A stretch of DNA of 20,000 nt from Sarea resinae. Its lineage: Eukaryota. The number at the start of each line of letters is the position of its first letter. Positions within the stretch are counted from its first letter, which is position 1. Below, piece by piece: positions 1-20,000 of this stretch. Below the pieces are notes generated by a model. The model did not search any database and had not been told where the DNA came from. It saw only the letters and a list, made by a program, of their open reading frames with translations. The stretch lies in the NCBI GenBank assembly GCA_026026165.1, contig JAPEUD010000066.1, positions 119,552-139,551 of the forward strand, given 5' to 3'. Made by a program: the position numbers and the translations under genes.

Positions 1-2811
1 ATATATGCTTCTTGCGAATCTCTTCGAACTTACAATCAGATCCGGGGGCGTTCTGCATAACGAGGTTCAAGCCCTTTGGCAGGCGCTTGCTACCGGTCCT
101 TATGGAGGCAACATCCAAGTGGTCTTAGATTTTATTATTTCTCTGTGTCTTGATCGGAGAGAGCAGAACTTTGTCGACTATGCCAAGCAGATTGTAGTTT
201 TTCTATCGAGCACCCCGGCCGGTCTGAAGGTCGTGGAGTTCCTCCTTCTACAGATCACACCCAAAGCTATGGTTCAAGAAAAGCGAGATCCCCTCGCTCC
301 GCCTCCAGAAGCTCATTCCTTGCCTTACCTAGCTGATCTTTCGCTTGCATTGCCAATAGGCCACAAACAGGTATTGAATTTCCCAATCCATAAAATAATT
401 TGTCACAAGCTAAAGGAAACTAGTCCGGATTCTCACTCGGTCAGCTGGCGCTTATACTACTTGTTGATCTGATGGTATCACCTGTACAACTTGATCCCGA
501 GAACGTACCCCTATTATTGCAAGTTGTCCTCGTCCTATGGGATCATTATATCCCTCCCGTACAGGAACAAGCAAGGGAAATGCTCGTCCATCTTATCCAT
601 GAGCTCGTCATCTCGAGAGTCGAAGATGAGAACACCATTCCCAGCAAACACTCCATAGAAGATCTCATCGATTGTGTTCGCCAACACGAGCCCAAAGTCG
701 TGTGGGCTTATGAGGATAGCTGTGGAAAAGATGAAGATGGGGATGGAGGTAATCGAGTGCCGCCGGCCATGGCCTACGTCACGGAGAAAGTTGTGGAGAT
801 TTTTACTCTGACTTACCCAGGTATTCGGGAGCAATGGGCAAAGACCACCTTGAGCTGGGCAACTTCTTGTCCTGTGCGTCATCTTGCCTGTAGGTCATTT
901 CAACTTTTTCGATGCACTTTGACGTCGTTAGATCAGAACATGCTTGCAGATATGCTAGCACGTCTATCTAACACTATCGCCGACGACGAAACGGACATTC
1001 AAACATTCTCCATGGAAATCCTGACCACCCTCAAGACCATAATTGGAGCCTTAGATCCAGAGGATGTTCTTCAGTATCCACAACTATTCTGGACCACGAC
1101 TGCCTGCCTTGATACGATACACGAACGAGAGTTTATGGAGAGCCTTTCGATGCTGGAAGGGCTGATGGATAAGGTGGACTTCGGCGATCCGGAAAATGTC
1201 AGGATGCTCATGGATACATTGCCTCCGAAGTGGGAGGGAGATTTTGAGGGTGTTGAGCCTCTAATCTACAAGGGCCTGAAATCATCCGCCTCGTTAACTC
1301 GGACGCTTTACATCATGGAGAGGCTCGCCGAGCTTCCCAACAACGTAATCATTGGCGATGATAGTCGCCTGTTGTTCGCGGTGTTGGCAAATCTTCCACG
1401 ATTCCTTCAGAGCTTCGAAACCGGTGTAAGCGATCCATCATGCCTACGGTGCGCTGAGGCGTTGGCTCGAGTAGCTGAAAATCAAGGGTGTGGCCATGTC
1501 TCTCGATGCTTGACCGGGTTTGCCACCTCTCGCTACAGGTCGAGCGCAGACTTTCTTTCGCAATGTGTCTCCGCGATAAGATCTTTTTTCTTTCCGAAGT
1601 GGGACTTCCAGAGTCTAGTATTCCTCATGGGCTTACTCACTAACCAGCTCCCTTGGTTCAAGATCAAGACAATGGAATTGCTTTGTGTCATTATTCCGGA
1701 CATCGATATGAGGAAGCCTGAGATCTCCAGTCACGGCCCTGATCTAATCTCTCCTCTCCTGAGGCTTCTGCAAACGGAGTTCTGCCCTCAGGCTCTAGAA
1801 GTCTTGGATCACATCATGACAATGTCTGGAACGCCCATGGATAAACATCATCTGAGAATGAGCATGGCTGGCTCACATTCCCACGCGATCAGAAAAGAGT
1901 ATGAACGAACACAAAGCCTGTTCGGCATTCCAGAAGAGACCGGCTGGTCTATTCCAATGCCTGCGGTACATTCCACTACAACTCGACGTAACGTCCACGC
2001 GGTTTTTTACACTTGTGCGAGTGCCGAATTGATAGATACAGACACAGCCGCAACTCCCGAGGTGGAGTTCCATACGGATGAATTCCAATTTGGATCTTAC
2101 ATCCCAGATCGGACCATAACAATGATGTCTGATGAAGGCCGTGGAGATGGAAATATAGGCGAACTTGTCATGAAACTAGACAGTTTAGATGACTTTTTCG
2201 AGGATCATCTAGCCACCGATAATGTAAACGGCGATCACCAAACCCAAGAGCTCGTCGATTTTCCATCCGATGTGGCTGATTCGAGCGCCAGCCTATATGA
2301 CCAAGAAACGCTGCCCATTCTTCACAAATCTCTCGCTAGAACATCGAGCGTTTCGTCGTTCCAAACTGGATTTGCTGATGTCAAAGCTCCCGGTGCGCGC
2401 GACCCAGGCGTGATGACTCCAACAGCATTCGCTATTCCACAGGGGCTTCCGGGACGGCCTTCTATGCATTCTCGTTCTGTGACATCGCCAGCTGTGAACA
2501 GCTTTCAGACGTCAACGGGAATAGAACTTCTGTCTGATGACGATATGGATGAGATTTTTTCCGATGACGAGCATTCAACCACTACGGGGCAGGGCAACGA
2601 AGGATCTTTCTTCCTGGAAAATATGATACGGCCTTTAGCGCACGGGACTCGTTCGGGTATGCGGAGGTTAACGGGAGGGGGTGGGAAAGAACGAGAAAGG
2701 CAAAGGGACGCACTCCGCGCTGAGAGGAAATTTAATATGAATCCCTCCTCTCCCAGAGTTCCCAAAGTTCCGAGCGCTTACATGCAAGGTTCGCGTTCTC
2801 AGGATATATAA
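1..2811 (+). CDS. TAO3: Cell morphogenesis protein Tao3/PAG1/Mor2 (Furry family), C-terminal part; gene starts upstream of window; exons <1-370 and 424-2811
   Basis: ORFs 5..472 and 472..2811 join in frame across a phase-0 intron 371-423 (GTATTG...TAG), giving ...IGHKQ|SGFSLGQLALILLVDLMVS. Motifs WATSCPVRHLACRSFQLFR, LARLSNTI, YPQLFW and DLISPLLRLLQT are characteristic of the MOR2-PAG1 C-terminal region. Stop TAA at 2809-2811. Confidence 0.93.
371..423 (+). other. Spliceosomal intron (53 bp) in TAO3/PAG1
   Basis: GT at 371, GCTAA branch-like site near 409, TAG at 421-423; removal restores one continuous reading frame. Confidence 0.9.
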
Positions 2812-3206
2812 TTCTTTGACTGTCAGGCTTACTACGCGCACTTGCTTGCTGGTCGAACAGCGCCTTAGCCTGTAGGAATTTCTTCGGTTCAAAAGCCTTT
2901 CGCTACCTATACCCTATAGAATTCTTTTTGGCGAAGACCTCGTAGCCATTGGCGTCAAGGTTAATTTTTCAGAAATGTGAATGTGTTAGAGAATAAGGGG
3001 GGGGTAATCCTATTATTACCTATCTTTTAAGAAACTTTGATAATACTATAGTACCTTTAGGTGAATTTGTATATTACATTTTATCTGCTACAAATCATTG
3101 ACTAGCCTTTTATTAGAGTAGGTAATTATTACCTAGTAGGTTAGGTTAGATATTAGAATTATAACCTTAATACTAGTCACCTTTAAGTATCTAGACAGTT
3201 ATAGAC

Positions 3207-3590
3207 TGTTATAAGACAAGAAAATAAAATATCTAGAAGCTTCTACATACCTATAGAAGCTAATAGAATGTAGTAAAACCCTATAGTATATTATAGACTA
3301 TTCTAAGAGATTCTATAGCTATACTAACTAAGTATCTAGAACCTTTTAGAATGTTCTAGAACTATTTAGAAGTCTATAGAGTCTCTTAGACATCTATAGA
3401 ACTTCTATAACATAAGAGTTATATAACTATCCTTTAACTTTCTTATAAAGTATACTAGTATATTATTATTAGCTTATTGCTTACAAATCACTTATGTAAT
3501 TAGTTGTTACTAGAAGTTTCTAGTAAGTTAGTTAAGTCTATATATTAACTGCCTTATATCTCTATAGCTAGAATCTCTAAGTTTATAATA
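3207..3590. mobile_element. Possible RIP-degraded solo LTR of a second retrotransposon family
   Basis: Starts TGTTATAAG and ends TTTATAATA (RIP-compatible inverted termini). Contains repeated TCTAGAA/TTCTA motifs and TATATAA near 3420. No matching TSD found. Confidence 0.35.
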
Positions 3591-4114
3591 TATAATTATT
3601 CTATACTATACTTCTTTAGCACCTTTCTCTACTTATATCTTTGTGCTACTTTCTAACACTTTGTTTAAGCAATTTTATACTGAAAAGGCATTATAGACTC
3701 TTATAATTAAGCTAGTATATAGGTTAGGTTAAACAAATTAGAGGCTGTATTTACTAACTCTATATAGGTTTCTAGAGTAAATAGATTATAGATATAAAAT
3801 CTAATCTAGTAGTAAATTAGGTTAGTTTTTCCTTAGCACTACTATATATAATCTTAAAATAGCTTACAGTTAATAGAAATATATATAAGTTAGTGTTATA
3901 GAATTTACATGTTATAATGTTCCTTAGATTATAATTAAAATGATTTACTAGAGTTTACCTCTATTAATTTATTGCTAAAAGTAACAACTAATAGTAACAC
4001 TTATTATAAAGAAAAGATCTATAAACCTATTACTTTTATACCTTTTTTACCTCTAAACTCTCTAAGAAAAATATGCCTATTAAGTGCTATAACTACCTAA
4101 TAAACACTATATAA

Positions 4115-4741
4115 CTATTTAGAGTAGACTGCTAAATTCTCTATTATTTTCTTTACTAATTATATATCTTTCTACTAGATTATAACTCTATTAGTATAGA
4201 TAGCTATGTTATTAGAGTCTAAAAAGAGCGTTACTATATACTATTACTTTAGAATATTAAACTTAACTTACTATTAAAGAAGCTAGATATATAAAGTTCT
4301 ATTGCTTTCTAAATAGTATTAATAGTAGAGCCTTAGAAATAAAAGGACTTAGATAGATACTAATTAATTACTATTTCTTAGACTAAGTAGTAGAATACTA
4401 TCTTTAGTAATAAGAGTTAGCTGCTTTTTTAATAGTATTTTATCTAATAAAGCGTGCTTGCTAGAAGATATTATATTACTAATATATATTACTATAGAAT
4501 AGTAGATAAAGAACCTACTATTTAGTTTAGTCTTTCTATAGACTTTATTTATTACTAACTTAGCTATAGTAAAAGCTTTATTCTTAGCTAAGGTATTATA
4601 ACACTACTTATCTTATTTCTTATAGTGCTTATTAAAGCTCTTATAGTATTTATCTTATCTACTCTAGTATAACTTTATAACCTTAGAGAGAGTAGAATGT
4701 TTAAAGTTATAGCACTTTATATATTACTTAGTACACTTTAT
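4115..4741 (-). pseudogene. RIP-inactivated divergent histone H3-like gene, 3 exons (4741-4519, 4460-4272, 4218-4115), ~171 aa
   Basis: Minus strand, with RIP changes reversed: M-K-R-T-K-Q start (ata aag tgt act aag taa), ...HRKTKPG|TSALRQIKxYQKS.QLLLPK..F.RLVREI...SFRFQGSAI.AIQEA.E.Y...FF.|DSNNMAIHANRVTIQQKDMQLV. Two GT-AG introns (4518-4461 GTAGGT..CTAG; 4271-4219 GTAAGT..TTAG) keep the frame. Confidence 0.85.
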
Positions 4742-4811
4742 AATTACTATTTAAGTAAGAATTAGTTACTATATTCTATTACTATTAAAAAGACTTATAT
4801 AGAGTAGATTT

Positions 4812-4872
4812 AATAATAATAATAAGACTTAGTAATAATAATAAGACTTAAAGATAATAATAATAAGACTTA
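4812..4872. repeat. Short tandem repeat, 3 copies of (AAT)n-AAGACTTA (~19-22 bp unit), upstream of the H3-like start
   Basis: aataataataagactta occurs three times in succession. Confidence 0.75.
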
Positions 4873-5139
4873 ATAATAGTGTAAGATCTATAAAACAAAT
4901 AATTATTACTAGATACTATTACCTTATAATCTTAGATTATAACTTACCTAACTTTAGAGAATAGTAAGGTAAAGTAGAATTAATAGCTCTAATTAAGTAG
5001 GTATATATATACTAGTTACCTTTCTAAGTTACTAGCTAGAATATTAAAGAAGTATAATAATCTAAAGGAAATCTATAGAGGTATAATAGCTAAAAGAGAG
5101 AGGTAGTAAAGTATATTAGTAAAAAGAGAGGTGTACTAC

Positions 5140-5526
5140 TATAAGGGATTAAACTAGATCGCACTAGATAAGTGCTAGATAGTCTTAAAGATATAGGAAC
5201 TGCTAAATTGTAATAGCGCTGCTATACTTAATAGTTGTTAAGTGTGTTATTATCTTAGGTCTTACTACTAATATATCTTAGAGAACTTAAATAGGTAGTA
5301 GAACAAGCGTGTTAATTAATATAAGCTATTAGCCTATAGCTTAGTAACTAAGTAATAAGAGGAAGAGAAAAACTAATGTGCTAACTACTTGCTTAACTAA
5401 ATGCTAGAAAACTAATAACTAAATGCATGTATAAAGAACTAATAATACCTCTTTTTAAACCCCTAAGGAATATAACCCTACTACTAACACCTAATAACTA
5501 AGCTATTACTAGTTTACCCTATTATA
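5140..5526 (-). repeat. 3' LTR (387 bp)
   Basis: Collinear with 16515-16901; by manual count about 25 differences, all transitions, no indels. Confidence 0.95.
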
Positions 5527-5538
5527 TCCTTCTCTCCT
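5527..5538 (-). promoter_or_regulatory. Polypurine tract (plus-strand primer)
   Basis: Plus TCCTTCTCTCCT = minus AGGAGAGAAGGA, directly abutting the 3' LTR. Confidence 0.85.
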
Positions 5539-5978
5539 ATAAAAATAAAGTTAGCCCTTAACTTTACTAACATATAAAAGACATGTCTGTTAAGGAAAAG
5601 GTAGGAAAAGCGTTCCTATAACTTGTTGCCCTTACGCTTTCTAGTTAAGCAGTAGAGAGATAGGTCTATTACTTGTCTATACAATTGTAGCATTTCTTGT
5701 ATAGTCTAGCTATTAAATAGATTAGACAACTTATTCCCTAGTAGCAGAGCTTCTTAAACACTTTTATAAGGAGATGTTTTAGGATTTAATAATGCTGCAG
5801 TTTTCTACTTCTTTAAAAGACAGGCTAGGAATAGTCCTTATTGTTTGCGCTTATTAGGTTTAGAACTCCTAGCCTATCTAGAAGAACCTTTGCTAATTAT
5901 ATTACAAGCAAGGTCTTAAGAGAGTTAGTCTATTAGATTAAGCAATTGCATTGCTTTTATTATTAGTTAGTCTTAAAC

Positions 5979-8894
5979 TTAGGTAAACTCTTTACTTGCT
6001 GCCTTTTCTATATTATTGTTAGTAAAGACTAGCTTAATATCTAATTCAACAGCGAACTTTCTCTTAGCTAGGCTAGAGGAAACAATTTTGTAGAGGTCTT
6101 CTAAAACATCTAATTCTTCTAACTGTTTAGAGTCTGTATTATTATTAGATACATGTGTTCTGTGTTCTATAGAGTAGAAATATAATTTGTTTCTATAGAG
6201 GCGCATTTCTATTCGCTTAAATACCTTAAAGGCTTTGTAGTATTAGCTTAGAGCTTAGCGTCTCTATTGCTAAAGATATCTAGTGACCTTATCTGTATTA
6301 TCCTCTATAAGAATTCTTTGCTCCTCTATAACTTCTAGCTTGTTAAATCTTCTCCTTCTAACTAAGTAATTAGATGTAGCCTCTAACTCTATTAATAAGA
6401 CTGCTGCTAGAAATTTACCTAGGACCTCTCTATACATATTAGGATGCCTGCTTAGGCTGTTTAGTAGAGGTGTTAGGTCTCTAAAACATGCAGATATATT
6501 CTCTTAAGTTCCTAACTCTAAAGCCTCTAGAGTCTAGTAGTTAGTATAGACACAAACTTTCTACAGATAAATAACGTAGCAGCAAGCTGTTAGCTTTTTA
6601 GTAGTCCTATAGGCGGCCTTAGGATTTGTAACTCAGAGGTCCTAGGCTTAAAGAGGCTATATAGTCTTTATTATGCTAAATCTTTCTTTGTCTGCTTTTA
6701 TAACCTATCTTCTATTAATAGTAGTAACTTTCCTAGTGTGTGTGTATAGCTTTAGGTTGTGTTTCTTAACTTCTTTAGCCTAAAGTTTAAAGGAATAACT
6801 TATGCTAAAGTAGACTATAGTGCAATTTTGTTTATCCTTAGGTTTAATAGCAATAGCGAATTGAATTATATTTGCGCCTTAGTCCTTCTTAGCTAGCTTA
6901 TAGACATTCTAGTCTAAATAGTAGAATCCTATATAGTCGCCTTTAGATAAGGATTTAGTATAGTAAGGATAGCTAATAAGCTGTATATTCTAGTCTAGCT
7001 AGTAGAAAACAGTAATTAGGTAATGCTACAGGTCTATATTAATTAGCTGCTAGAAAAGAGAGTAGAACATTATCTAAACCTAACTCTAATTAGCTTTCCT
7101 ATTAACCTTGCGTTAATAATGTTTGTAGCACGCAAATTCTTCCTTTACTATATCTGCTAGTCTAGGTGCTAACTCTATCTATTAGTAAGCTTTGTTAATA
7201 ATAACTGATCTATTTTTGTTCTAGTCTGCTATATGTGTCTTAAACTGCTGTTTAGTATAGGTATAGGTAGGTATAAACTCCTCTATATTAGTTTCTACCT
7301 TTAACTAGTATAACTCTCTAGCATCTGCTAGGCGCTTAGGTTAGATCTTCTTGCTAAACTAAATGTAGGTTTCTTTCTTAACTATAAAATCTACGAAATC
7401 TCCTAGCTAGGCTAGGAGCTCCTGAAATTATTGTCTTAATTCTATGTCTAAAGCATTATTCTTTATGCTAATACATGATGCAAGTGCCCTTATATAGTTT
7501 TAGCAAAGCTATTTAGTATTATATATTATATTAATTGTCTTCTACATTTGTAATAGCTTAATCGCGATTGCAAGGGTGGCTAGTTTCTTGCTTGCAACTG
7601 CATCTAAGAGTAAAGCTAGGACCTATAGAGTACATTTACAGCCTTTAACAACTAGCTTCTGTTTGACTTTAGATTCCTTTAACAGAATCTTTAGGCCTAT
7701 CTAAGAGTTCTTAACTAGTTGTAATGCTCTAATAGTTAAATTTAACATGATATTCTTAGCCCTAAGTAATAACAACCTAGTAGCAAGTGCTTTCTTTTCT
7801 AATTCCTCTTCTAGAAACTCCTTAGGTTTCTTCTCTTTATTATTATTAGCAGCAAGTCTCTCCTTTATAGCGTCTTTATAATCTGTCTTCTTCTTTAGTA
7901 GATCTTATAGGCTATTCTATTCTAGGTTAGCTTCTCTAAGGATCCTATATATATTAATAAGTGCTCCTACTATCTAAAGGTCTTTCTTAGTAAACAAGAA
8001 GATTTCTAACTTTTTACCTTTCTCTAACTTTTTAAGAGCCTTTGCTAGTTGTTTCTAATCCTTAGAAGTTTGCTTAACAATAGATTTAGAAAGCCCTTGC
8101 TTTCTTCCTCCTATAAGTTGTTGTATAGCTTCTAAGTTTGCTATTCTTATTGCCTCTTTAAATAGATACTAAGCTATAACATGCTTTATATTATCTAGGT
8201 GATTTCTAGACATTTCTGCTTCTAGCAAATAACAGGCATTATTATCTCTCTACTTGTTTCTAATCTTTTATCTTCCTTTAGCGATACGCTTCTTCTTATT
8301 ATAGGATTCCTTAGCAAGATTAAATATCTTAAGGATGTTGCCTATCTAGTGCGTCTTAATATACTTAGCTAACACTAAGTCCTTTTTAACTTCTTTAACA
8401 CTCTATTTATACATCTATAAATAACAGGTATAATGCTTGCTTATCTTATTAATAAAAGTCTTATAGAAGTCGACTTTTTCTTAGAGGTTAGCTATTATAC
8501 TTATATAAGTGTGAATAGATTCTACATTCTAGAATAGGATGCTAGAAATAGTTATAAACATATCTTTTGCCTTAAGCGCTGTTGTACTAGGTGTAGCTAG
8601 TGTAAGAGAGGTGTAGAGTAAGGTAGAAGATATATTAGTCTCTTAGTTTTCTTCTAGTTAGTCCTAGAGATTAGACTGTGTAATATGTCTTAGAGAACTT
8701 AACTTAGCTGCTAGCGCTTCTAATATTAAGGTGTCTACTTCTTCTTCTTAGGTATCGCCTTTAAATTCTTTACAGATAATAGAGAGATTAAGCTGTGTAG
8801 TAAGAGTGATAAAGAGGTCCTAGCTATTGCCTTTAGATAAGGTAGATAGGGGTGCTAGGGTTTCTTCTTATGTAGACAATTGCTAGCCAGCTAT
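5979..8894 (-). pseudogene. Retrotransposon-borne extra ORF (ORF3, ~970 codons): S/P/T-rich N-terminus, helical/basic region, CxC...CxxH motif, C-terminal 2OG-Fe(II) dioxygenase-like (PhyH-type) domain
   Basis: One frame throughout (same as track ORF 5979..6206), broken only by RIP-type stops. De-RIP: EEFACYKHHQR...MFYSLFQQL...LISYPYYTK...GF.HLDWN (HxD 6920-6912)...GANMIQFAIAI..ED.QNCT...RVTNPKAAHG (distal His 6611-6609)...RRYVIYPW (Arg 6584-6579). Start (aaaATAgct, 8894) and end are approximate. Confidence 0.72.
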
Positions 8895-9947
8895 TTTTAG
8901 CGATTCTTATCTCCTAGACTGTCTAGAAGATTAGAGAGAGCAAATATCCTTAAGGGTATAAAAAGATTTTTCTCTTAGGAATGCTAAGAGATTGTAAATA
9001 ACTGTAGAGTGTGATTAGATAAGAGAAGTAATTGTGTAGATTTTCGCTTATTATCTAATAAGGTGTTAGACAACAAGTGCTAATAGTAAGTAAGCTAATA
9101 AGGTAGAGAGTATAAGCAAGCTAATTAAGAGGAAGAGTTTGTAATAGGTGAATAATATTAGAAGAGCAGATAAGATAGTAGCAGCAGAAATTGCATAAGA
9201 AGTAGGAAAATATTTAGAGAAGATAGAGGTAAGCAAGTAGAAGATGTTTTCTTATAGTTCTTACTTAGAGTGCATATAACTAGATTCCTACTAATAATTG
9301 TTAGATATTAGCGTAAAAAAAGTGTTATCTTGCTTTTCTTTTATAGTGAATTTTAGCGTGTTATTAAGCTAAAGTAGTAGCTGCAGCGTTAGTAATACAC
9401 TTAAGCAAGGTTCTTTGTTATCTATATTGCTTCTTTATTTACCCTTACTTTTATACATGTTTTGCACCTAAAAGTAAGGTAAAAGTAAGATAAATTTAAG
9501 ATAAGGTTAAGCAAGTAGTAAGAACAATCTTTGCAACGCTAACTAAGGCGAATAGTAGTTGTAAGGCAGATATATAGTGCTTGTGCAAGTTAGGAATACT
9601 TGTCATACAATTTTACTAACTTATAGCGTGTTATTAAATTTAGATAAAGGCTGCATACTCTATAGTGTTACTCTTTAGGTCTAACTAGAAGATTAAGCTA
9701 GTAGAGTTTGTTTTACCTTAATATAAGCTAAAGAAGTGAAGTAATATAATGTGTAATAAATTAGAAATGTTATTACAAATTGTTAGGTATACTATACTAT
9801 ACAATATAAGCTGCGCCTCTTACGCCTCTAGCAAGGTAGACTGTAGTTAAAAAGATCTAGCTAGATAAGGTTATATATATACACACCTCTCTCTAGTTTC
9901 TTTTAAAACTTCTAGCTAGGCTAGAAAGTTTTATGCTATATAATTAG

Positions 9948-12900
9948 CTAAGGTAGGATAATAACAGCAAACAATCTTCTATAAAGCACTAAGGCCTATA
10001 AGGCCTTATATTCTTCTTAAGTTACTTGATTATTATTATCCTTAAGGTCCTTAGACTAAGTATTATTAGTATTATTTGTAGACTTGTCTTTAATTAGATA
10101 ATTAGGTATAGAGGTAGGCGATCGCGTGTTCCTTGCAGAATTAGGTAGAGAAGGTTAGCATGTAAATTTCTTTAGACAATTTCTAGGTGCAGTGCTGTTT
10201 AACTTAGTGCTGTTAAGTTTAGTAAGCTAGTAAGTTCCTTAGACAAAGTCAGCCTATATAACACAATAGAGACCTATCTACCTATAGCAGAGTTTGCTTT
10301 AGAGCGAATAGTCTATAGCAAGCTTAGTGTTATAGAGTAATACTATATTATTAACGTTAAATTTATCTAGGCAGAGATTATAAACTTTATTAAATGCTTC
10401 TTTACCTTGTTCACACATGCAGTGTAGATATAGCTAGGTTTCTTATAGATCTTTATTGTAGCGTTGCATTTGCTAAGCCTATAATGCTAGTAATTCTGTA
10501 GTAGTTCAGACTAAATTCTAGTCTAATACATGCTAGATAGGAAGGTCTAATTTAATAGGCAAGACTGTGTTATATCTGTATAGCACTTAATAAGGTGTCT
10601 AGCTAGTAGAAACTCAAACTGTAGTGCAGTCAGCCTATAGGACTATATGCAAGTTCTAGACCTAATTTCCTATGCCTCTGTTTATTATCTTAGCTAGTGT
10701 ATTAATAATAGAGGTATAACCTCTTTCTACTAGGCTATTTGCTTGCAAGTAGTATACTAAGACTATAACGTGATTGATTCTATACTTCTCTATAAGAACA
10801 TGTATAAACTGCTTGTTCTCTAGTCCTCTATTAGTAACTAGCTTTTAAAAGCATCTGTAGCAGCAGATAATATCTTTGTAAAGGAATTTAGCAATAGTAG
10901 CAGAGGTAGCGTCTCTTATAGCGTGTGCTTCTACCTAGCTAGAAAAGTTATCCTAGGTAACAATAATGTTCTTCCTATTCTAGTAAGCTAGTATATGTAT
11001 TATGTTAAGGCTAACCTTCTCCTAACAGGCAAAAGACTAGGTTAGGTGTAAGGCCTTCTCTTCTTATTTAAAGGCTCTCTCTTAACACTTCTAGCAGCTC
11101 CTAATATATGTTACTACTTCTAGATATAGATCGCTCTACTAGTATCTATCTGCAATGCGCTAATAGGTGCCTTCTTAGCCTTTATATCCTCCTTAATTGT
11201 AGGCCTCCTCTAGGATATAGGCTTTGTTAGTATCTTAGTTAATAACTCTTTAAAGTAGTATATTCTTAGAGGCATACTTAAACAAGTGTTAGTCGCGAAC
11301 TAAGAATTTTAGGGCGTGATTCTTAAACTTGCAGAACTCTTTTGCGCTTATTTCTGCTAGCTAGACTAGAGAAAGAAGCTATTATACAATCTTCTGCAAT
11401 TTGTCTAAGTAACTATCCTTAAGAGGTAATAGAGGTTCTGCCTCTACACTGTCGCTATTTACAGATATAAGAAAGACTTAAACAAGGTATAACTCTAAGT
11501 CTATTATGTTATTAATGTCTGCCTTGTTTTCTATATTAGCGATATCTTCTGTAGTAGCTAGCTAATAAGATAATCTATTAGCAGCACTATGCTTTTAACT
11601 AGGAACATGTTAAATAGTAAAGTTAAAAAGGCAGATCTATACAAGCTATTAAGTGATAAGAGCACTAGGAAGGTTAGCTGCAGGCATATTAAGTTATACA
11701 ACTAGAGTATTAGCATTAAGTTCTACTACAAAGGTCTGACTGTATAGGTAGACTTAGACTTTCTTTAGCGCCTTTAGTAGGCCTTAGCATTCTTACTTTC
11801 TTGCATTGTACTTTTTCTCTGCGTTGTTCTAGAGTCTACTCTTAAATCAAATAGAGTGCTGTTTTCTAGTCTCTAGATTAACCTGCATAAGGTTCGCTCT
11901 CTAGCCTTCTCTACTAGCATTAACTCTAAGTATAATCTCTCTTTCTCTTAGTCTATAGATAATTGTCACTAGTGCTAGCGCAGTAGTAAGAGTGTACTTT
12001 AGCTTATCTATAGCTAACACCTAATCTAGTCCCTAGACAAATTTAATATCCTTCTTAAATAAGATAAAGATTAGCCTAGCAATAATAGCAAACCTGTTAA
12101 TAAAGATCCTATAGTAGACACATATGCTAATAAAAGCCCTAGCTTCTATAACATTCTAATAATTAGGCTATTCAACAATCTTTAGCACTTTAGTGCTGTT
12201 AGAGTGTTAGCTGTCTAAGTTGCAGACATAGCTAATAATCTTAATGCCTTCTATATAGAATTAAGATTTCTCGCTAGATACTATGTAGCTAGACTGCTCT
12301 ATATCTGCTAGAACCTTATTAAGTAATTAGATATACTTAGCTATATAGCGCCTGATTCTAGGTAAAATTTCTTTGCCTTTATAGTTAGATTAAGGCCCTT
12401 TAACACTAATATTATCTAGAAAAGGTTGAGTAAGATTAGGAATGTAGTTGCTAAGAATCTTTATAATAATGCAGACAAATTACACAACTAAGTTTATAGC
12501 TCTTTAAGGTAAAGTCGTCTAGTAAAGCAGGCCTAGAGGTGTTATAAAGGCAGTTATATCCTAGCATTCTTCTACTAGTTCGATCTAATTATATCCTAAG
12601 AAGAAATCAATAAGTAAGGCGACTTACATACTAGCAAATTCCTTAGAAAATTCTTCTACTAAAGGCAAGAGGTTTATGTCTTAAATTATAACCTTGTTTA
12701 TTGCTATTGCTGTGTTAACTATGCAATACTTTCTAGACTTCTTCTTAACTAGGAACTATAGGTTTTAGTACAGTCTGTAGCAGTGTTCTAGTAACCTATT
12801 CTTTAATTGTTCTTATAGCATTTTAATAACCACTTTGTTTAGTGCTTATAGAACTAAAAAACTATTAGCTTGCTAAGCAGTATGTAGAATAGTTTGTATC

Positions 12901-13535
12901 TCTTACACTAGCGCTACCTCTTTTCAGACCTTGCTAATTTCTAAGAAGTCCTACACAAGGGCCTTCTTACAATTATAAAGCATTGTAGTAAGCATCTCTT
13001 TCTCTTAATCTAATATACTATCTCCTACAACTATTATCTCTAATCTTTTAGGCGTAATATAAGATCCTTTTTGCAACTTTAAAAACTTTAGAATTAGCAA
13101 CGTGTTAAAGTCTTCTTCTAGACAGTCTAGGTCTTTTTTGTGTAACGTTCTGTAGTTTAACGCGTCTTTCTCTTCTAACTCTCTTTTCTAGTCTTTTGCT
13201 CCTCTAGGCTTGCTACTATCTAATACTAAAGTGTTAACTAGTCTAACCTTATCTCTCTTTTTCTTATACATTGTATAGATATAGGCTAAGTTAACGTTTC
13301 CTTTTAGATTTAACTCTAGATTAAGTATCCTCTTAGAAAACTAGTAAGTTTCCTCTTAACCTATATATAACGCTTTAAACTCCTTAACCTAATCATTATT
13401 CTCCTAATCTGTCCTAGAGAAATCCCTAGCCTTATTATCTAGTTTCTACTTATCTTCTTCTTCTAAGCCTTGCTATATTAGTCTTATAGTTATAGCAAAC
13501 ACCTGCTTAGGATAGCGTCTGCTATCTAGTTTAAA
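9948..13535 (-). pseudogene. pol: pol (reverse transcriptase - RNase H - integrase), RIP-inactivated
   Basis: De-RIP motifs. RT: LIDFFSGYDQI, TAFMTPLG, LPQGATNS, catalytic FLDD (12422-12411). RNase H: VDASGEGWG (~11920) and AADGLSR. Integrase: HHCC (11201-11085), D (11006), D (10832), E (10727), GPY module. No chromodomain; 3' end approximate. Confidence 0.93.
13526..13535 (-). promoter_or_regulatory. -1 programmed ribosomal frameshift site (U UUA AAC followed by UAG)
   Basis: In the gag-PR frame the minus strand reads tgT TTA AAC TAG; a -1 shift gives exactly the RT frame. Confidence 0.8.
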
Positions 13536-15913
13536 CAGTTCTAGCTAGAGAATATATTAGCATGCCTTCTATTAGACAAACTTTCTACTTGTGCTGCACT
13601 AAATATCTTTAAATAGCGTTAGTCCTCTAAAAACACAGTGCATATTATTGTTCTATTATCCTACACCTTAGTGTGTATACAAGCAGCAATCTAATACAGT
13701 TGACTAAGGATAAGTAGTTGATCTAGTTAAGTAGTAATAAAAATAGGTACCCTGCTAGTAATACCTCTAATATTGACTTTAATATCTTTAGCGCATCCTA
13801 TAAATAGTGCTAGCTTTCCTTTAATACTAATTATTATAGTAGCTAGTTAAGGAGTCTAACTTAGCCTAAGATTCTTTGCTGTTAATAGACTTATTAGATA
13901 TATCTTAGCACTACTATCTAATAGTCCTCTTATTCTCTTTTTTCCTTTAATGCTTACTTCTGCTATTATATATCTAGCAGTATATAACGTGGAATTTAGT
14001 ATTTCCTTATTAGTATAATTATTGCTTTCTATCTTTCTAACTATCACTAGGCGATCTATATTATGCTGTCTAGCTACAAGATAGCCTTCTAACCTTCTGC
14101 CTAAAGAGTATAACTTATCTCTAAGGTTCTTAAAGAAAAGCTTCTGAACTTTAGGCGCATTTAAAAGAAGATCCTTTACTATAACGTGGTTAAGCTGCTA
14201 ATCTAGTATTATATCTATAATAGAAGCAGGGTTAGCGTCTTCTCTAAGGTAATTAGATAATTAGCGTTGATAAGCCTTTTGCTAATATATTTCTTCTACC
14301 TTATCTATTAGCTCTAGCTTAGCAAACTCTACTCTCTTTTTAGAACTGCTAGCTAGACTAGGACATTATAGAGGCTGTTCTTTATAACAGACTATATCTC
14401 TCTTCTTAAGAACACAACTGCTCTAGTACGTCCTAGGGCAGATGTTCTTAGCTGCAGGCAACTTTTCTTCCTCTTAAATTCGCCTCTTATAGACTCTAGC
14501 ATCTAGGTCTTATATAGGTTTCTATATAGCAGGGTTAGATCCTTGCCTAAGGATCCTCTTAAGTTGTCTTACTAAATAGACATTTAATTAGTTATAGTTA
14601 TTAGCTTCTACATCTGTGTTATCTAGCTTAAGATCTGCTGCATAAATAGAACTAACCCTTACTAAGTTAACTCTTAAACTAAGGCTTAGTTGCTTCTTCC
14701 TTTTATTATACATCCTTTTCTATTCTTTGTTAGCAAACAGGGCTTAGTATTTGCTAGGAGGAATATACAACTCTGCTTTACCTTGTTCTTTAGGACCCTA
14801 ATATATTTAACAACGTTTGTTAAAATAAATCTTTCTACTTATAAGGAGCTGCTGTATTAGCAGGCAATTAGCGAATCTATAGCGCTAGTCACTGCATCTA
14901 AAATATCTAGTCAATTAAGCACAGTTTGTATCGCGAGCTAGATCTGCTCTATTATTCTGCTAGCTAGTCTAGTAGTTTAGTGCGCTTGCAACTTTTAAGG
15001 CAGAAGATAGTATCTAAGTAAGGAGCTTAGCAGTGTTTGTAGCACTTGCTGTAACTGCTTTAATTAGAATTATTAAGCTAGCTAACCTATCTGCTAATTT
15101 GTCTATAACCTTATTAACCTTCTTACTTGCTGTTCTTTCTATATAATCTTATACAACTAGAGGTTAGAGTAGCTCTGCTATAGCAGCCTTTAGAGCTAGG
15201 TGCTATCCTTTAATTAAGGTCTTTACTATCTTTATTAGCTCTGTCTTATTCAGCTTCTGCAGTGCCTGTATAGATTGACATTACTTAATAGCAATGTTAA
15301 AGATCTTCTTAAAGTCAATATTAGTAGAGTTGTAATTGTCTAGGTCGATATAGCCTTATGTGATAACTTTAACTTAGATCTCTTAGAGAAGGCCTTAGAG
15401 AAACTATAACATACAAGTATAGGCATTAAGCTTGTTTTTCTAGCATAGGGTTTAAGAGATGCTCTAGAACTAACAACAATATTAATAGATCTCCTCTGTA
15501 TTTAAACAGGGTTTCTCTTTAAGGGCTTTAAGGTAAGTTTAGGAGTTGATTTACTGCTCTATATCCTAATTAGAGTAGTCTTTTAGCAGCGATTTCTTAA
15601 ACTTATCCTAATCTATAAGATACTCTAGCATAGTCTTAATACTGCAAGACATAATACTCTTATAATAACGTAGGAGCCGCTTAAATATCTCTGTTTAGTT
15701 AAGCTAGTAATCCTTACACAGTCCTTTATATCTCTTAAAGAACTCTATAGCGTTCACCCTGTTAAAATATAGTACGCTATAGGTCTTAGAGGATAGTATA
15801 GGAGTAAGATAATATATAGTAGGTAGGAATGCAGTACTAGCAGCTATTGTAGGTAGTGTTAGTAATTCTAGTGAACTGTCTCCTAAAAAGTGCAGAGAGG
15901 AACGCGTTTGCAT
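13526..15913 (-). pseudogene. gag: gag-protease ORF, RIP-inactivated
   Basis: Track ORFs 15704..15913 (de-RIP APYFDGANATEFFERYE) and 13856..14047 (LLDSGAE aspartyl protease, Asp 13918-13916) share one frame. Zinc knuckle C-x2-C-x4-H-x4-C at 14905-14864. Confidence 0.88.
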
Positions 15914-16496
15914 AGTAGTAACAATTGCAGCTGCAACAAAGTTTACTGTTTCTTAAATAATTGCTTAAACAAATTATGTTAACTTATAAAGGCACTTGTC
16001 TTGTTTGCTGCTTTTAACTTTCTTATGTTTAGACCTTGTCTTACTCTTGCTAATCTACTTATCTCTAGTAGCGCCTTAAACATCTCTTAGCGCACTCTTT
16101 AACGCATAATAAAGCTGTTCTTTCTATCTGTTCTCTTTATATACTACGCAATAAACTGCCTTATTGCTAAATAAACTGTAAGCTGTTAAGGATTGCCTCT
16201 AACCTCCTTAGATAAATAGCTGTCGCCTAACTATTTTAACAATAAGATCTAGCTAGTCTAGTAGAATTTTTCGTTGTGTAATCTCTAAACTTTATGTCTT
16301 TGTTTCTAAATTCTTTTAGGGTCTCTACAATTCCTACTTCTTATCTCTCTTATATTGTGCTAACCTTTTAGAGTCTTAATTATACAGGCTAGGTTTTGTA
16401 CTAGCCTTGCAGATCTAGCAACCCTTCTGTGTATCCTTTAAGCAGTGTTTATACTTATTTGTAAAGCACTTTCTAGTTAAATCTATGTTGTTTAAG

Positions 16497-16514
16497 CCTT
16501 GTATAGGTTACTAA
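16497..16514 (-). promoter_or_regulatory. Probable primer-binding site
   Basis: Minus TTAGTAACCTATACAAGG directly follows the 5' LTR; TAG is RIP-compatible with TGG (complement of tRNA CCA). Cognate tRNA not identified. Confidence 0.6.
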
Positions 16515-16901
16515 TATAAGGGATCAAACTAGATCGCACTAGATAAGTGCTAGATAGTCCTAAAGATATAGGAACTGCTGAATTATAATAGCGCTGCTAT
16601 GCTTAATAGTTGTTAAGTGTGTCACTATCTTAGGTCTTGCTGCTAATATATCTTAGAGAACTTAAATAGGTAGTAGAATAAGCGTATTAATTAATATAAG
16701 CTATTAGCCTATAGCCTAGTAACTAAGTAATAAGAGAAAGAGAAAAACTAACATACTAACTGCTTGCTTAACTAAATGCTAGAAAACTAATAACTAAATG
16801 CATGTATAAAGAACTAATAATACCTCCTTTTAAACCCTTAAAGAATATAACTCTACTACTAACACCTAATAACTAAGCTATTGCTAGTTTACTCTATCAC
16901 A
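16515..16901 (-). repeat. 5' LTR (387 bp)
   Basis: Direct repeat of 5140-5526; minus strand begins TGTGATAG and ends CCCTTATA (RIP of ...ACA). Confidence 0.95.
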
Positions 16902-19088
16902 CTATAAGCGACTATAGGTGCGCTATATAACCTATATTACCTACGTTATAAATAGTTAACGCTATAGTCTAATATATATAGTAGTTCTAGTAGCAGCTAT
17001 AATAGCACTATATATAGTGCAGTGTAGTAAGCAAAGTATATACCTAGTATGTACTACAGTAGCTAGTTTATGCTAGTAGTGCAACTTTATAAACTTAGCA
17101 CTTATAGATAGTTCTAACATACCTAGCCTATAGGGCTATAGGGTAGGTTATAGCCTTAGCGCTAACTAATTATAGAGTAAATTTTTATGAATTTTTATAA
17201 TTTCCTATTTAGAAAGTCTTAGTGTTAATACCTATAGCACTAGAGCTACTTTCGCTTAAATTTCGCTTAAACTTTTGCTTATATAAGCAATTTTCGTGTA
17301 GCATAGGCATTTCTATATAGATAGAAGAATTCTATATAGATATAGGTGTTCTATATAGACACTATAAAACTATATAGCTACTTAATGCATTACTATTTCT
17401 ATATAGCTAGGTACTATATATATATATTAAGGTACAAACTATATAGACCTTTTATAAAGGCTACTGCTAATAGAGGTGCTATATATAGCTTAGTGTAGCA
17501 TAAGGTAACTACTTAGTGTAGTTTAGCAACATTTAGGTAAGCTAAGTAGAGTTATTAGCTATATAGATTAATAGAGGCGCTAGCTATTAGGGCTAGTATT
17601 TAGTGCAATTATAAAGTTAGTGCCTACTAGTAATATCTATATCTATAGTATTAGTTTTGTATTGCTAGAGTGATGCTAGCACGCTATAGTACACTAGCCT
17701 ATTTAATTGTGCTATTTCTACCTACTCTACTATAGCTAGAAGCTTAAGAGGTAGTCTAACACCTTTTCTCTTTTTACTAATATAGAAATATATAAGTAGT
17801 AAGAGAAAGAATAAGCACTTAGATATATAGGTAAGTAGAAGTGTAGTAGTATAGTATACTATATATACTAGTAGTGTAACTCTATATAAGGATTAGGTTT
17901 TAGCATAAAAATCATTAAATATCTTAAATGTAATAAATGTAAAAAACAGTGAATATAAGAAACAATAAATACAGTATATACTATAGAGTTATATAACTTT
18001 TAAAGCATTATACTTATAGCTTTTAACTTCTTTCTTTCTTAACTTTTTTACTTCTTTCTTTAACTTATTACTTATTACTTACTACTTCTTCTATCTCTTT
18101 TACTATTTAAATTTTCACTAATTATCTACAAACTTAATTTCTATTCTCTCTAGATATTGCACTATATAATAGTAACAGTATATAGTAACTAAGAATAAAA
18201 GTCTATACTATATTAGCTAAAAATTTAGTTTTAGAAAAAGATAGCTAATTTCTCTACTAAAACTTCTTAAAAGAGTATACTTTTATTACTCTAGTAAGTT
18301 CTACTATTATATTACATAATAGTGACTACAGATAGTAACTAATACTTAAGTTAAAAGAAATTTAGATATAGATTCCTAATTTAATAATCTTAATCTAATC
18401 TAATAATCTTAATCTAATAAGACTTAATGTCAGACCGCCTCCTGGACTTCTAGCTATGGTAGAGTAGGTAGGAATAGCATGATCGAATAGGCTAGTGCAC
18501 TGCGGCGTGCTGGCGTCACCCTGGCGATGCGGAACTGATACTATGGATATGGATATTGCCAGTAGGCACTGACTTCGTAATTGCACTGAACGCTGGCCCT
18601 AATAGCCAGCGCCCCTATTGATCTATATAACTGATGACCCCGCTCGGCTTACCCGAACGTTGCCGAACCACACCAGGTGGTTACCCTGCGCTGCGCCGAG
18701 CCGCATACGGCACCCTTATCGGTAGTGGCCCTCACAATTACCTCCCCTCCTAGGACCTGGTCCTCTAGGTCCTTTGTTCGCGATGTATGACATCATGGTG
18801 TTGAGTCTTTGTCTCGCTGGCGCCTCGGTGGCGTTGCCATTCGCCGCAAACAGTGAATTCGTGTAGATAACAAAGGGAGTTCTTTGTCCTGTTTGCTTGG
18901 TTTGCCAAACGCCGCGCCGGGGTGGCAGCAGTGAATAGACAGAGTGAATGCTTCAAACCGTCCGCATTAGGCATTCTCCCCATCGCTTGGAGGTCGCTTA
19001 GCCATGGGTGTGTAGGTATAAAACGTAGGTGATCCAGTGCGCGCGCGCACGATCGAACTTTTCGCACCACGTTTCAGGTACGTTCCAT

Positions 19089-19786
19089 ATGCCCATCATG
19101 AATCCCGGACGCTTCGCCGCGCCCCCGCCACGTGTGAACCAGCCTGCCGCCGCCCTCCGAAAGCCTGTGGAACTGAATCGGGACGTCTGCCTCCGCTGCG
19201 CTAAGGTCATCGGGTCCACGCCAGATATCGTCTGTACGAAGGCCTCATCAGCTGCGAAGTGCACACGATGTGCTCGGTTGCATAAGAAGTGTAGTCAGGT
19301 AAGTGACTCCCACATGGTGCCAGCCAGGCTCTGACCCAGCGTGCCGAAGGTGCCTACGGTCTTCCGCAAGCGCCTGAACCGGCTCACCAAGGCGGCTGAC
19401 GTGGTGGTTGGCTACGCCGATGACAACCCCGCCAAGGAGCCGTCGGCCGCTGCGCTCCGCGATCTACAGAGGCGATTCACTCGCCAGGTCGAAGTCCACG
19501 TGAACGCCGCCAACAAGCACCCGTCCGACAACGCGCTCCGTACGGCCGTGGCGACGGAACGACTCGCCGATGGCGTCGAAAGCCTCAATGATATCCTCCG
19601 GTTTGCTGTAAGTCGCACGTGGAACGCCAGCGATGCGACAGCGCTAACCCAGTCATCTAGTTCGATTTGCCGTCCGTTACGCGCGCGGGTGAGAGTGACG
19701 ATGAGGATGACGACGATACGACTGCGCCTCCGGGGGGGTCCGGCAATCAGGCCAGTCAGGGCCAGGCGGGGCAGACCGGTCAGTGA
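19089..19786 (+). CDS. Small (197 aa) protein with atypical six-cysteine Zn-cluster-like motif and acidic tail; exons 19089-19298, 19350-19607, 19661-19786
   Basis: Introns GTAAGT..CTGAC..AAG (19299-19349) and GTAAGT..GCTAAC..TAG (19608-19660) join the track ORFs in phase 0. Motif C-x2-C-x11-C-x8-C-x2-C-x6-C; C-terminal ESDDEDDDD; stop TGA 19784-19786. Confidence 0.8.
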
Positions 19787-20000
19787 TGGGATGGTGGTTC
19801 TTTCCGTTTCCTTTGTATACTAGATAGCTTCGGGTTCGCGCCGGGACGGCGCCGGGGGTTAATTTCACTTTTCTTTTCCGTGACTTCATCTCCCCTCGTG
19901 ACCGTAGCATCGTAGCCCTATAGCCCAATAGCCTTCCACAGAGACCGTACGCCGTTAGCACGCAATCGCATCGCAGGCCTACCCCTACGTTGGCTCGCTA

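Follow-up and report, generated by a model that had tools for sequence, protein, structure and literature searches.

The systems closest to the one described here are fungal histone H3-like genes carried in repeated DNA. In Pyrenophora tritici-repentis, 26 near-identical, mostly intact and expressed H3L genes lie in hAT elements (Manning 2013, PMC3538342); they carry insertions in the N-terminal tail, and their fold fully fits neither canonical H3 nor the centromeric form, CenH3. In six Mycosphaerellaceae (Pseudocercospora, Cercospora and Sphaerulina), each genome is described as holding 135–784 intronless, RIP-dead H3-like copies in 9.5-kb hAT elements with 8-bp duplications, which stem from a captured transcript and are mostly fragments matching exon 3 (Dhillon 2019, PMC6710886). 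The R25 family of Parastagonospora (Stagonospora) nodorum is a RIP-degraded repeat with weak similarity to H3; its best match is a Pyrenophora H3, and the similarity improves after RIP reversal (Hane and Oliver 2010, PMC3017866). A literature search for amplified H3-like genes in fungal repeats, in which subscription journals were thinly covered, returned Dothideomycetes only.

In this work, we analysed a 20,000-nt stretch of ascomycete DNA (hereafter the window), which probably contains one dead copy of a dispersed repeat family carrying a divergent, intron-containing H3-like gene that was copied as DNA and then hit by RIP. The Pyrenophora H3L genes are likewise divergent H3-like genes in repeated DNA with N-terminal tail insertions, whereas they lie between hAT ends together with a transposase and the gene here is RIP-dead with no hAT parts seen; their host is a Dothideomycete and the host here is placed outside that class, and the two are likened by description, not by sequence (PMC3538342). 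With the Mycosphaerellaceae copies, all the extra ones among which were inactivated by RIP with premature stops, it shares this inactivation and amplification in AT-rich repeat blocks, but it differs from them in its two intron-like gaps, its full-length reading, its depth of ~10–24 times that of single-copy DNA and its lack of visible hAT hallmarks (PMC6710886). R25 is alike in being a RIP-degraded repeat family with histone H3 similarity, and unlike in the class of its host (PMC3017866). The gene is a known kind of relic in a new host lineage, with introns.

The locus and its host lineage

Host DNA lies at both ends of the window, with an AT-rich block (GC 21–36%) of four parts between:

1–2811: left host gene, for a morphogenesis protein of PAG1/Tao3 type; the window covers its C-terminal part, up to 2811
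3088–3662: very high-copy repeat, the leftmost part of the AT-rich block
3663–5131: moderately repeated unit with the H3-like gene, bordered on its left edge by the high-copy repeat and on its right edge by a Gypsy LTR
5132–16903, minus strand: Gypsy-type LTR retrotransposon, with RT_RNaseH and integrase zinc-binding domains at ~11075–12011
5132–5528 and ~16508–16903: the LTRs of the Gypsy element, ~397 nt each
16904–18425: further AT-rich stretch
from ~18430: GC-rich right host DNA

The protein encoded by the left host gene was used to place the genome. In a FastTree tree of 29 PAG1 proteins (a single-gene, midpoint-rooted tree of the 29 rows with organism names among 120 listed), it adjoins Xylona heveae with a local support of 99, and the two belong to a group of five rows, together with Pycnora and two Candelariales, that is separate from a seven-row Dothideomycete clade. 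Because this protein is only 71–74% identical to its nearest named relative and groups with Xylona heveae, the host genome is assigned, on the sequence of this one protein, to a sparsely sampled ascomycete lineage outside the Dothideomycetes.

Gene structure

The gene lies on the minus strand and reads as follows:

4741–4115, minus strand: RIP-inactivated histone H3-like pseudogene, three exons and two introns, 172 codons
4741–4519, minus strand: exon 1, 74 codons and 1 base, encoding a basic tail with many AAR and TAY codons
4518–4461, minus strand: intron 1, 58 nt, GTAGGT..TTCTAG, phase 1, within the codon aligned to T45
4460–4272, minus strand: exon 2, alpha-N to most of alpha-2, with 2 extra residues in loop 1
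4271–4219, minus strand: intron 2, 53 nt, GTAAGT..GTAAC..TTTTTAG, phase 1, within the codon aligned to D106
4218–4115, minus strand: exon 3, the end of alpha-2, alpha-3 and the C-terminus, with the stop TAG at 4117–4115

The span 4115–4741 and the three exons with canonical introns are those of the first-pass annotation, and they hold, on the minus strand. When the exons are joined by script, they amount to 516 nt and 172 codons with zero frameshifts. Once intron 1 is removed, exon 1 and the H3 fold are again in one frame, both GT..AG gaps (58 and 53 nt) are required to hold the frame, and among the alternative splice registers of intron 2 that we inspected by eye, only 4271–4219 has GT..AG ends and keeps the length of H3. 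GT..AG ends and gaps of such lengths are typical of fungal introns. The C-terminus runs 4 residues beyond that of canonical H3. Since spliceosomal-type introns are retained, the gene was copied as DNA, and the earlier view that retroposition was not involved stands.

This copy does nothing today. It has no open reading frame able to give a protein: its start codon reads ATA, from which ATG is reachable, and its 171 codons include 15 internal stops, all of them, like the final one, TAA or TAG, with TGA absent.

Resemblance to histone H3

The strongest evidence for the identity of the gene comes from exon 2. Searched against sequences of solved structures with its stops set to X, it gave 161 matches at E<=10, the best 60 of which are all histone H3 chains; the top match, 7d69_A, a 149-residue H3 chain, aligns without gaps at E=4e-5. 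The Pfam histone family PF00125 was detected in exon 2 (E=0.013) and in the exon-3 frame (E=0.018), with scores of 16.2 and 15.7 bits that fall under Pfam's cut-off of 26.4 bits, and exon 1 alone had no Pfam match. Taken strictly alone, exon 3 has a single match among solved structures, which is an H3 chain, at E=0.92 and 13.2 bits; a query running from exon 3 into the tail of gap 2 reaches E=4.4e-4 and 23.4 bits against solved H3.

To read through the mutated codons, we also used a transition-tolerant scan, in which each codon is scored by the best residue reachable by undoing C>T or G>A. Across the six frames of the window, the three H3-like pieces rank as the top 3 of 1326 segments, with scores of 91, 89 and 86; the next best segment scores 69, the null lies at 37 ± 8.8, and no second H3-like piece was found within the 20,000 nt. 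Aligned with canonical H3 over 128 positions, the spliced model has 38 residues identical as read and 82 that are either identical or reachable by undoing C>T or G>A, a likeness that spans alpha-N, alpha-1, loop 1, alpha-2 and alpha-3. Every peptide quoted by the first-pass annotation in support of an H3 fold is reachable by undoing transitions.

Chance resemblance in AT-rich DNA might be suspected from the Pfam scores under the gathering cut-off and from the E=0.92 of exon 3 alone. It is effectively refuted, and of negligible probability, given the match of exon 2 on its own, with H3 chains filling the best 60 of its 161 matches, the order of the pieces, which are collinear, correctly arranged and frame-restoring, and their rank at the head of the 1326 segments.

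Wider sequence searches returned canonical H3. When exon 2 was compared with 1.84 billion representative proteins, no intact or closer H3-like relative appeared, and the 7 matches at E<=0.001 were all mis-joined concatenates of canonical H3. A metagenome scan with canonical H3 gave 80 loci, which encode intronless, near-identical H3.

Signatures of an H3-type rather than a CenH3-type fold

Descent from centromeric H3 deserves consideration, as the tail is long and divergent, loop 1 is longer by 2 residues, and Q is impossible at the codon aligned to Q68 (TAC); these features, the last of them a lost glutamine in alpha-1, are the ones in which the gene resembles fungal CenH3. We compared the codons by eye with the rows that Yun and Nishida 2011 give for fungal H3 and CenH3 in their supplement (PMC3029354). 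Pezizomycotina CenH3 rows there have the motifs RWQS, PF[A/S]RLV and AFLVHLFED, a GxWGG-type C-terminus and a loop 1 with 3–5 extra residues. The loop here has 2, which require a 2-residue gap against canonical H3 and none against 7d69_A. The informative codons are these:

codon 116, TTC: F possible, as in the H3 'RFQ'; the W of CenH3 impossible
codon 131, TAT: Y possible, as in H3; the F of CenH3 impossible
codon 134, AGC: S possible, as in H3; the H of CenH3 impossible
codon 98, TAC, aligned to Q68: C, H, R or Y possible; the A/S of CenH3 and the Q of H3 impossible

At codons 116, 98, 131 and 134, the fold residues specific to CenH3 in these Pezizomycotina rows are therefore unreachable by C>T or G>A, and this is what sets the gene apart from fungal CenH3. 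The loop length, the CenH3 motifs, the four codons (F rather than W at 116, Y rather than F at 131, S rather than H at 134, and A/S impossible at 98) and an H3-like start that reads x-R-T-K-Q all speak against a centromeric origin, which we regard as highly improbable. The first-pass annotation had named a grouping with CenH3 as a refutation of its reading, and in this by-eye signature comparison CenH3 signatures are absent from the codons. Judged by signatures rather than by a tree, the gene appears to be an H3-derived variant and not a copy of CenH3.

The N-terminal tail

The tail comprises 74 codons up to K-P-G|T, the length that had been proposed along with the two extra residues in loop 1, and both features are confirmed. 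Its abundance of AAR and TAY codons means that undoing transitions would make it strongly basic. As read in the window, codons 1–6 give I-K-C-T-K-*, and R-T-K-Q is reachable at codons 3–6. The start M-K-R-T-K-Q, put forward as keeping the context of K4, can indeed be obtained by undoing transitions; in three of the four contigs that cover the start of the tail, however, codon 2 has G as its first base and codon 3 has C as its third. Codon 2 was probably GAG or GGG rather than AAG, because of the G carried by these three contigs.

The tail had also been said to lack ARKS motifs at K9 and K27. That is true of the sequence as read, and the site aligned to K27 reads A-K-N-K-A, with nothing ARKS-like there; codons 33–35 (TAT AAG AGC), however, align to R8-K9-S10 and are derivable from R-K-S, so that loss of the K9 motif cannot be claimed. 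In both places the scoring is permissive and the sequence RIP-damaged. The further proposal that the gene could evade heterochromatin by keeping K4 while losing K9 and K27 is not supported, since it rests on a reading of the tail that is partly contradicted by other copies; this copy, moreover, is unable to make a protein.

RIP damage

The H3-like copy was killed by RIP-type damage, C>T and G>A, which turned 15 codons into TAA or TAG. Across 4115–4741, GC is 0.233, TpA/ApT is 1.82 and (CpA+TpG)/(ApC+GpT) is 0.19; the corresponding values for the left host gene are 0.487, 0.59 and 1.32. RIP has also been at work in the surroundings of the gene, where the two LTRs of the Gypsy element differ at 27 of 389 compared sites, all by transitions. 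High TpA/ApT, low (CpA+TpG)/(ApC+GpT) and differences between copies dominated by transitions, the features by which RIP-affected DNA is recognized, are all present, and the first-pass description of a RIP-killed gene is borne out. In the repeat pairs, mutated sites occur in CpG and CpA contexts alike, which makes undoing TGT to CGT reasonable in this genome.

Next to the right host flank, 17452–17763 and 18426–18737 form an inverted duplicate of 312 nt. The two arms differ at 80 of 312 sites, with no transversions, and at 73 of these 80 sites the AT-rich arm has T or A; the arm bordering the GC-rich host DNA has barely changed (GC 0.548, compared with 0.337 for the other). Either RIP acted very unevenly on the two arms, or the retained copy was under selection.

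Copy number and boundaries of the unit

To assess repetition, contigs of one DNA run from the same organism, a run that contains 81% of sampled words of 1–6000, were placed on 2500–5433 at >=80% likeness. Summed contig depth, which by the tool's own warning is not a copy number, is 355 in the unique flank at 2500–3087, 23634–170099 at 3088–3675 and 3412–8488 at 3676–5145, the last being ~10–24 times single-copy depth; over the LTR it is 21696–45077, and the bins of the gene itself lie at 9.6–18.5 times unique depth. Single sites of the gene-bearing unit are covered by 3–7 distinct variant contigs, one of which, of 144 nt, matches 4116–4259 with 14 differences and no gaps. Among the contigs, 118 places carry other letters than the window, and 81 of these are T>C (47) or A>G (34).

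The H3-like gene clearly exists in multiple copies, of which there are roughly ten or more. It lies inside a repeat, as first described, and a single-copy host gene, the alternative named at that stage, is ruled out because the depth shows several copies.

In the contigs, the edges of the unit appear as loose ends at 3656, a back-joint at 3662 and loose ends of the LTR at 5134; in this locus, the true ends of the unit at 3663–5131 are hidden by other repeats on both sides. Two further joints, 3635>5112 and 3336>5112, were considered as element ends and dropped, as their short side spans only 27–28 letters.

The first-pass annotation had proposed a search with 3600–5139 joined to 16906–18430, the two sides of the Gypsy element. 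Treating them as one unit is unsupported, because the sequences that border the Gypsy element (AGAGG at one end, CTATA or ATAAG at the other) do not match as a target-site duplication would and because the right flank is in part a host copy, 17452–17763 being a RIP-mutated inverted copy of the host flank at 18426–18737. A transition-tolerant local alignment of the left against the right AT-rich flank fell in the linear regime.

Carrier and mode of spread

According to the reading that we consider probable, the ancestral gene would have encoded a protein of ~171 residues with an H3-type (not CenH3-type) fold, two extra residues in loop 1, a basic tail of ~74 residues and four extra residues at the C-terminus. 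Either a mobile element or segmental copying would have multiplied a unit of at least 1.5 kb at the DNA level, so that it came to occupy some ten sites or more, and this duplication would then have exposed every copy to RIP. By analogy with the known cases, the carrier was possibly a hAT-type DNA transposon.

Transduplication by a hAT element, in which the H3-like gene was captured between hAT ends and amplified by transposition, and of which this copy would be a truncated fragment, is possible but doubtful. In the two published cases in which H3-like genes were amplified in fungi, hAT elements carry them (PMC3538342, PMC6710886), Pyrenophora H3L likewise has tail insertions and matches neither H3 nor CenH3 in its fold (PMC3538342), and the gene here is multi-copy. 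In 12 read-through frames, the six of 2900–5140 and the six of 16800–18800, no family of transposase domain, hAT dimerisation domain or DUF659 was found, although RIP or truncation could hide one; the only match was the histone. No convincing terminal inverted repeats or 8-bp target-site duplication were seen at the unit, whose true ends are masked here, and the Mycosphaerellaceae copies are described as intronless (PMC6710886), which the present gene is not. For the mobile-element carrier envisaged in the first-pass annotation, the locus offers neither a transposase domain nor convincing terminal inverted repeats nor a target-site duplication as support.

One inverted pair, 3604–3625 and 5038–5059, was examined as candidate termini. 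In a purine/pyrimidine code it extends over 22 nt, where 30 null trials reached 20 at most; it was rejected because it lies inside the neighbouring high-copy repeat and lacks a flanking 8-bp duplication; as the sole candidate of its kind, it counts against the hAT mechanism.

A second alternative holds that a host H3-variant paralogue was multiplied by ordinary segmental duplication, rather than as the cargo of a transposon, and that RIP then destroyed it along with the repeat-rich DNA around it. The retained introns and the lack of attached mobile-element hallmarks at the unit are compatible with it, and local duplication does occur, as the inverted duplicate of the host flank at 17452–17763 attests. 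The depth of ~10–24 times and the several variant contigs, on the other hand, suggest that the family is dispersed and did not arise by just one or two duplications, and no H4-like relic lies alongside, as would be expected had a genomic H3–H4 pair been copied; we hold this explanation to be unlikely. An apparent H4-like relic beside the gene, with a top score of 81 at 17929–18108, was discarded as a lysine-rich low-complexity artefact.

Finally, the gene could be 3' flanking DNA carried by the adjacent Gypsy retrotransposon. Since this element has its RNase H and integrase domains on the minus strand, the LTR at 5132–5528 is the 3' LTR, and the gene lies ~390 bp downstream of it on the same strand. 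The depth of the LTR (21696–45077), however, is several times that of the unit (3412–8488) in the same summed measure, other copies of the LTR have unrelated sequence before 5134, and retained introns oppose passage via spliced RNA, which leaves a Gypsy passenger with hardly any probability. The dispersed, DNA-copied family remains the preferred reading.

Intron positions and the origin of intron 2

In PMC3029354, the marked intron sites of H3 in a sample of 11 filamentous ascomycetes fall in columns A7, H39, P43 and L70, those of CenH3 at a tail site and at L70, and the D106 column is marked for basidiomycete genes only. The gaps here lie at the T45 and D106 codons, where an offset of 1–2 residues relative to the columns of PMC3029354 is possible, since that paper gives no rule for assigning sites to columns.

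Gap 2 has a further peculiarity, in that window positions 4219–4293 (minus strand) resemble flanking exon sequence at a 53-nt offset. When the last 22 nt of exon 2 with the first 31 nt of the gap are set against the last 22 nt of the gap with the first 31 nt of exon 3, 26 of the 53 positions agree; in the control, the mean is 15.5 ± 3.6, and 26 is reached at 17 of 2115 positions. Read in the frame of exon 3, the tail of the gap resembles a segment of H3 alpha-2, and this reading raises the match from 13.2 to 23.4 bits. Intron 2 may have arisen from a 53-bp tandem duplication, or such a duplication could merely mimic an intron. We favour a real intron, because of the near-consensus GTAAGT, the branch-like site GTAAC and the run of T before TAG.

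A broader reading, to which we accord only a slim chance, is that the locus represents a selfish or repeat-borne H3-variant family well outside the Dothideomycetes, with a gene structure of its own that comprises intron sites absent from the sampled H3 genes of filamentous ascomycetes and one intron possibly derived from the 53-bp duplication. If true, it would imply one of two histories: a repeat-borne histone variant of old origin, perhaps spread horizontally, that was formerly active on chromatin, or several captures of H3 by mobile DNA, each independent of the others. More generally, a case that groups with Xylona suggests that the repeated DNA of filamentous ascomycetes recurrently takes on H3 as a passenger and that RIP regularly erases such passengers. 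The locus itself is a dead relic that changes no concept, and its main use is as a pointer.

Other features of the window

The right host flank gave nothing usable with Pfam. It contains a long open frame at 19029–19823 on the plus strand, with a cysteine-spaced stretch near its start; Pfam returned no match to this frame, which is probably a host gene of unknown family. The interior of the Gypsy element, at 11 kb, is long and may contain nested material.

At the left end of the AT-rich block, the repeat at 3088–3662 has a summed contig depth (again a measure other than copy number) of 67–479 times unique depth and an internal palindrome at 3302–3390, and a contig that links 3662 back to 3151 points to copies in tandem or head to tail. 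Shortly beyond the PAG1 gene, 3000–3087 is single-copy by depth (355), yet its GC is 0.27 and its dinucleotide indices are RIP-like (TpA/ApT 1.33); this stretch of unique DNA may reflect leakage of RIP from the adjoining repeats.
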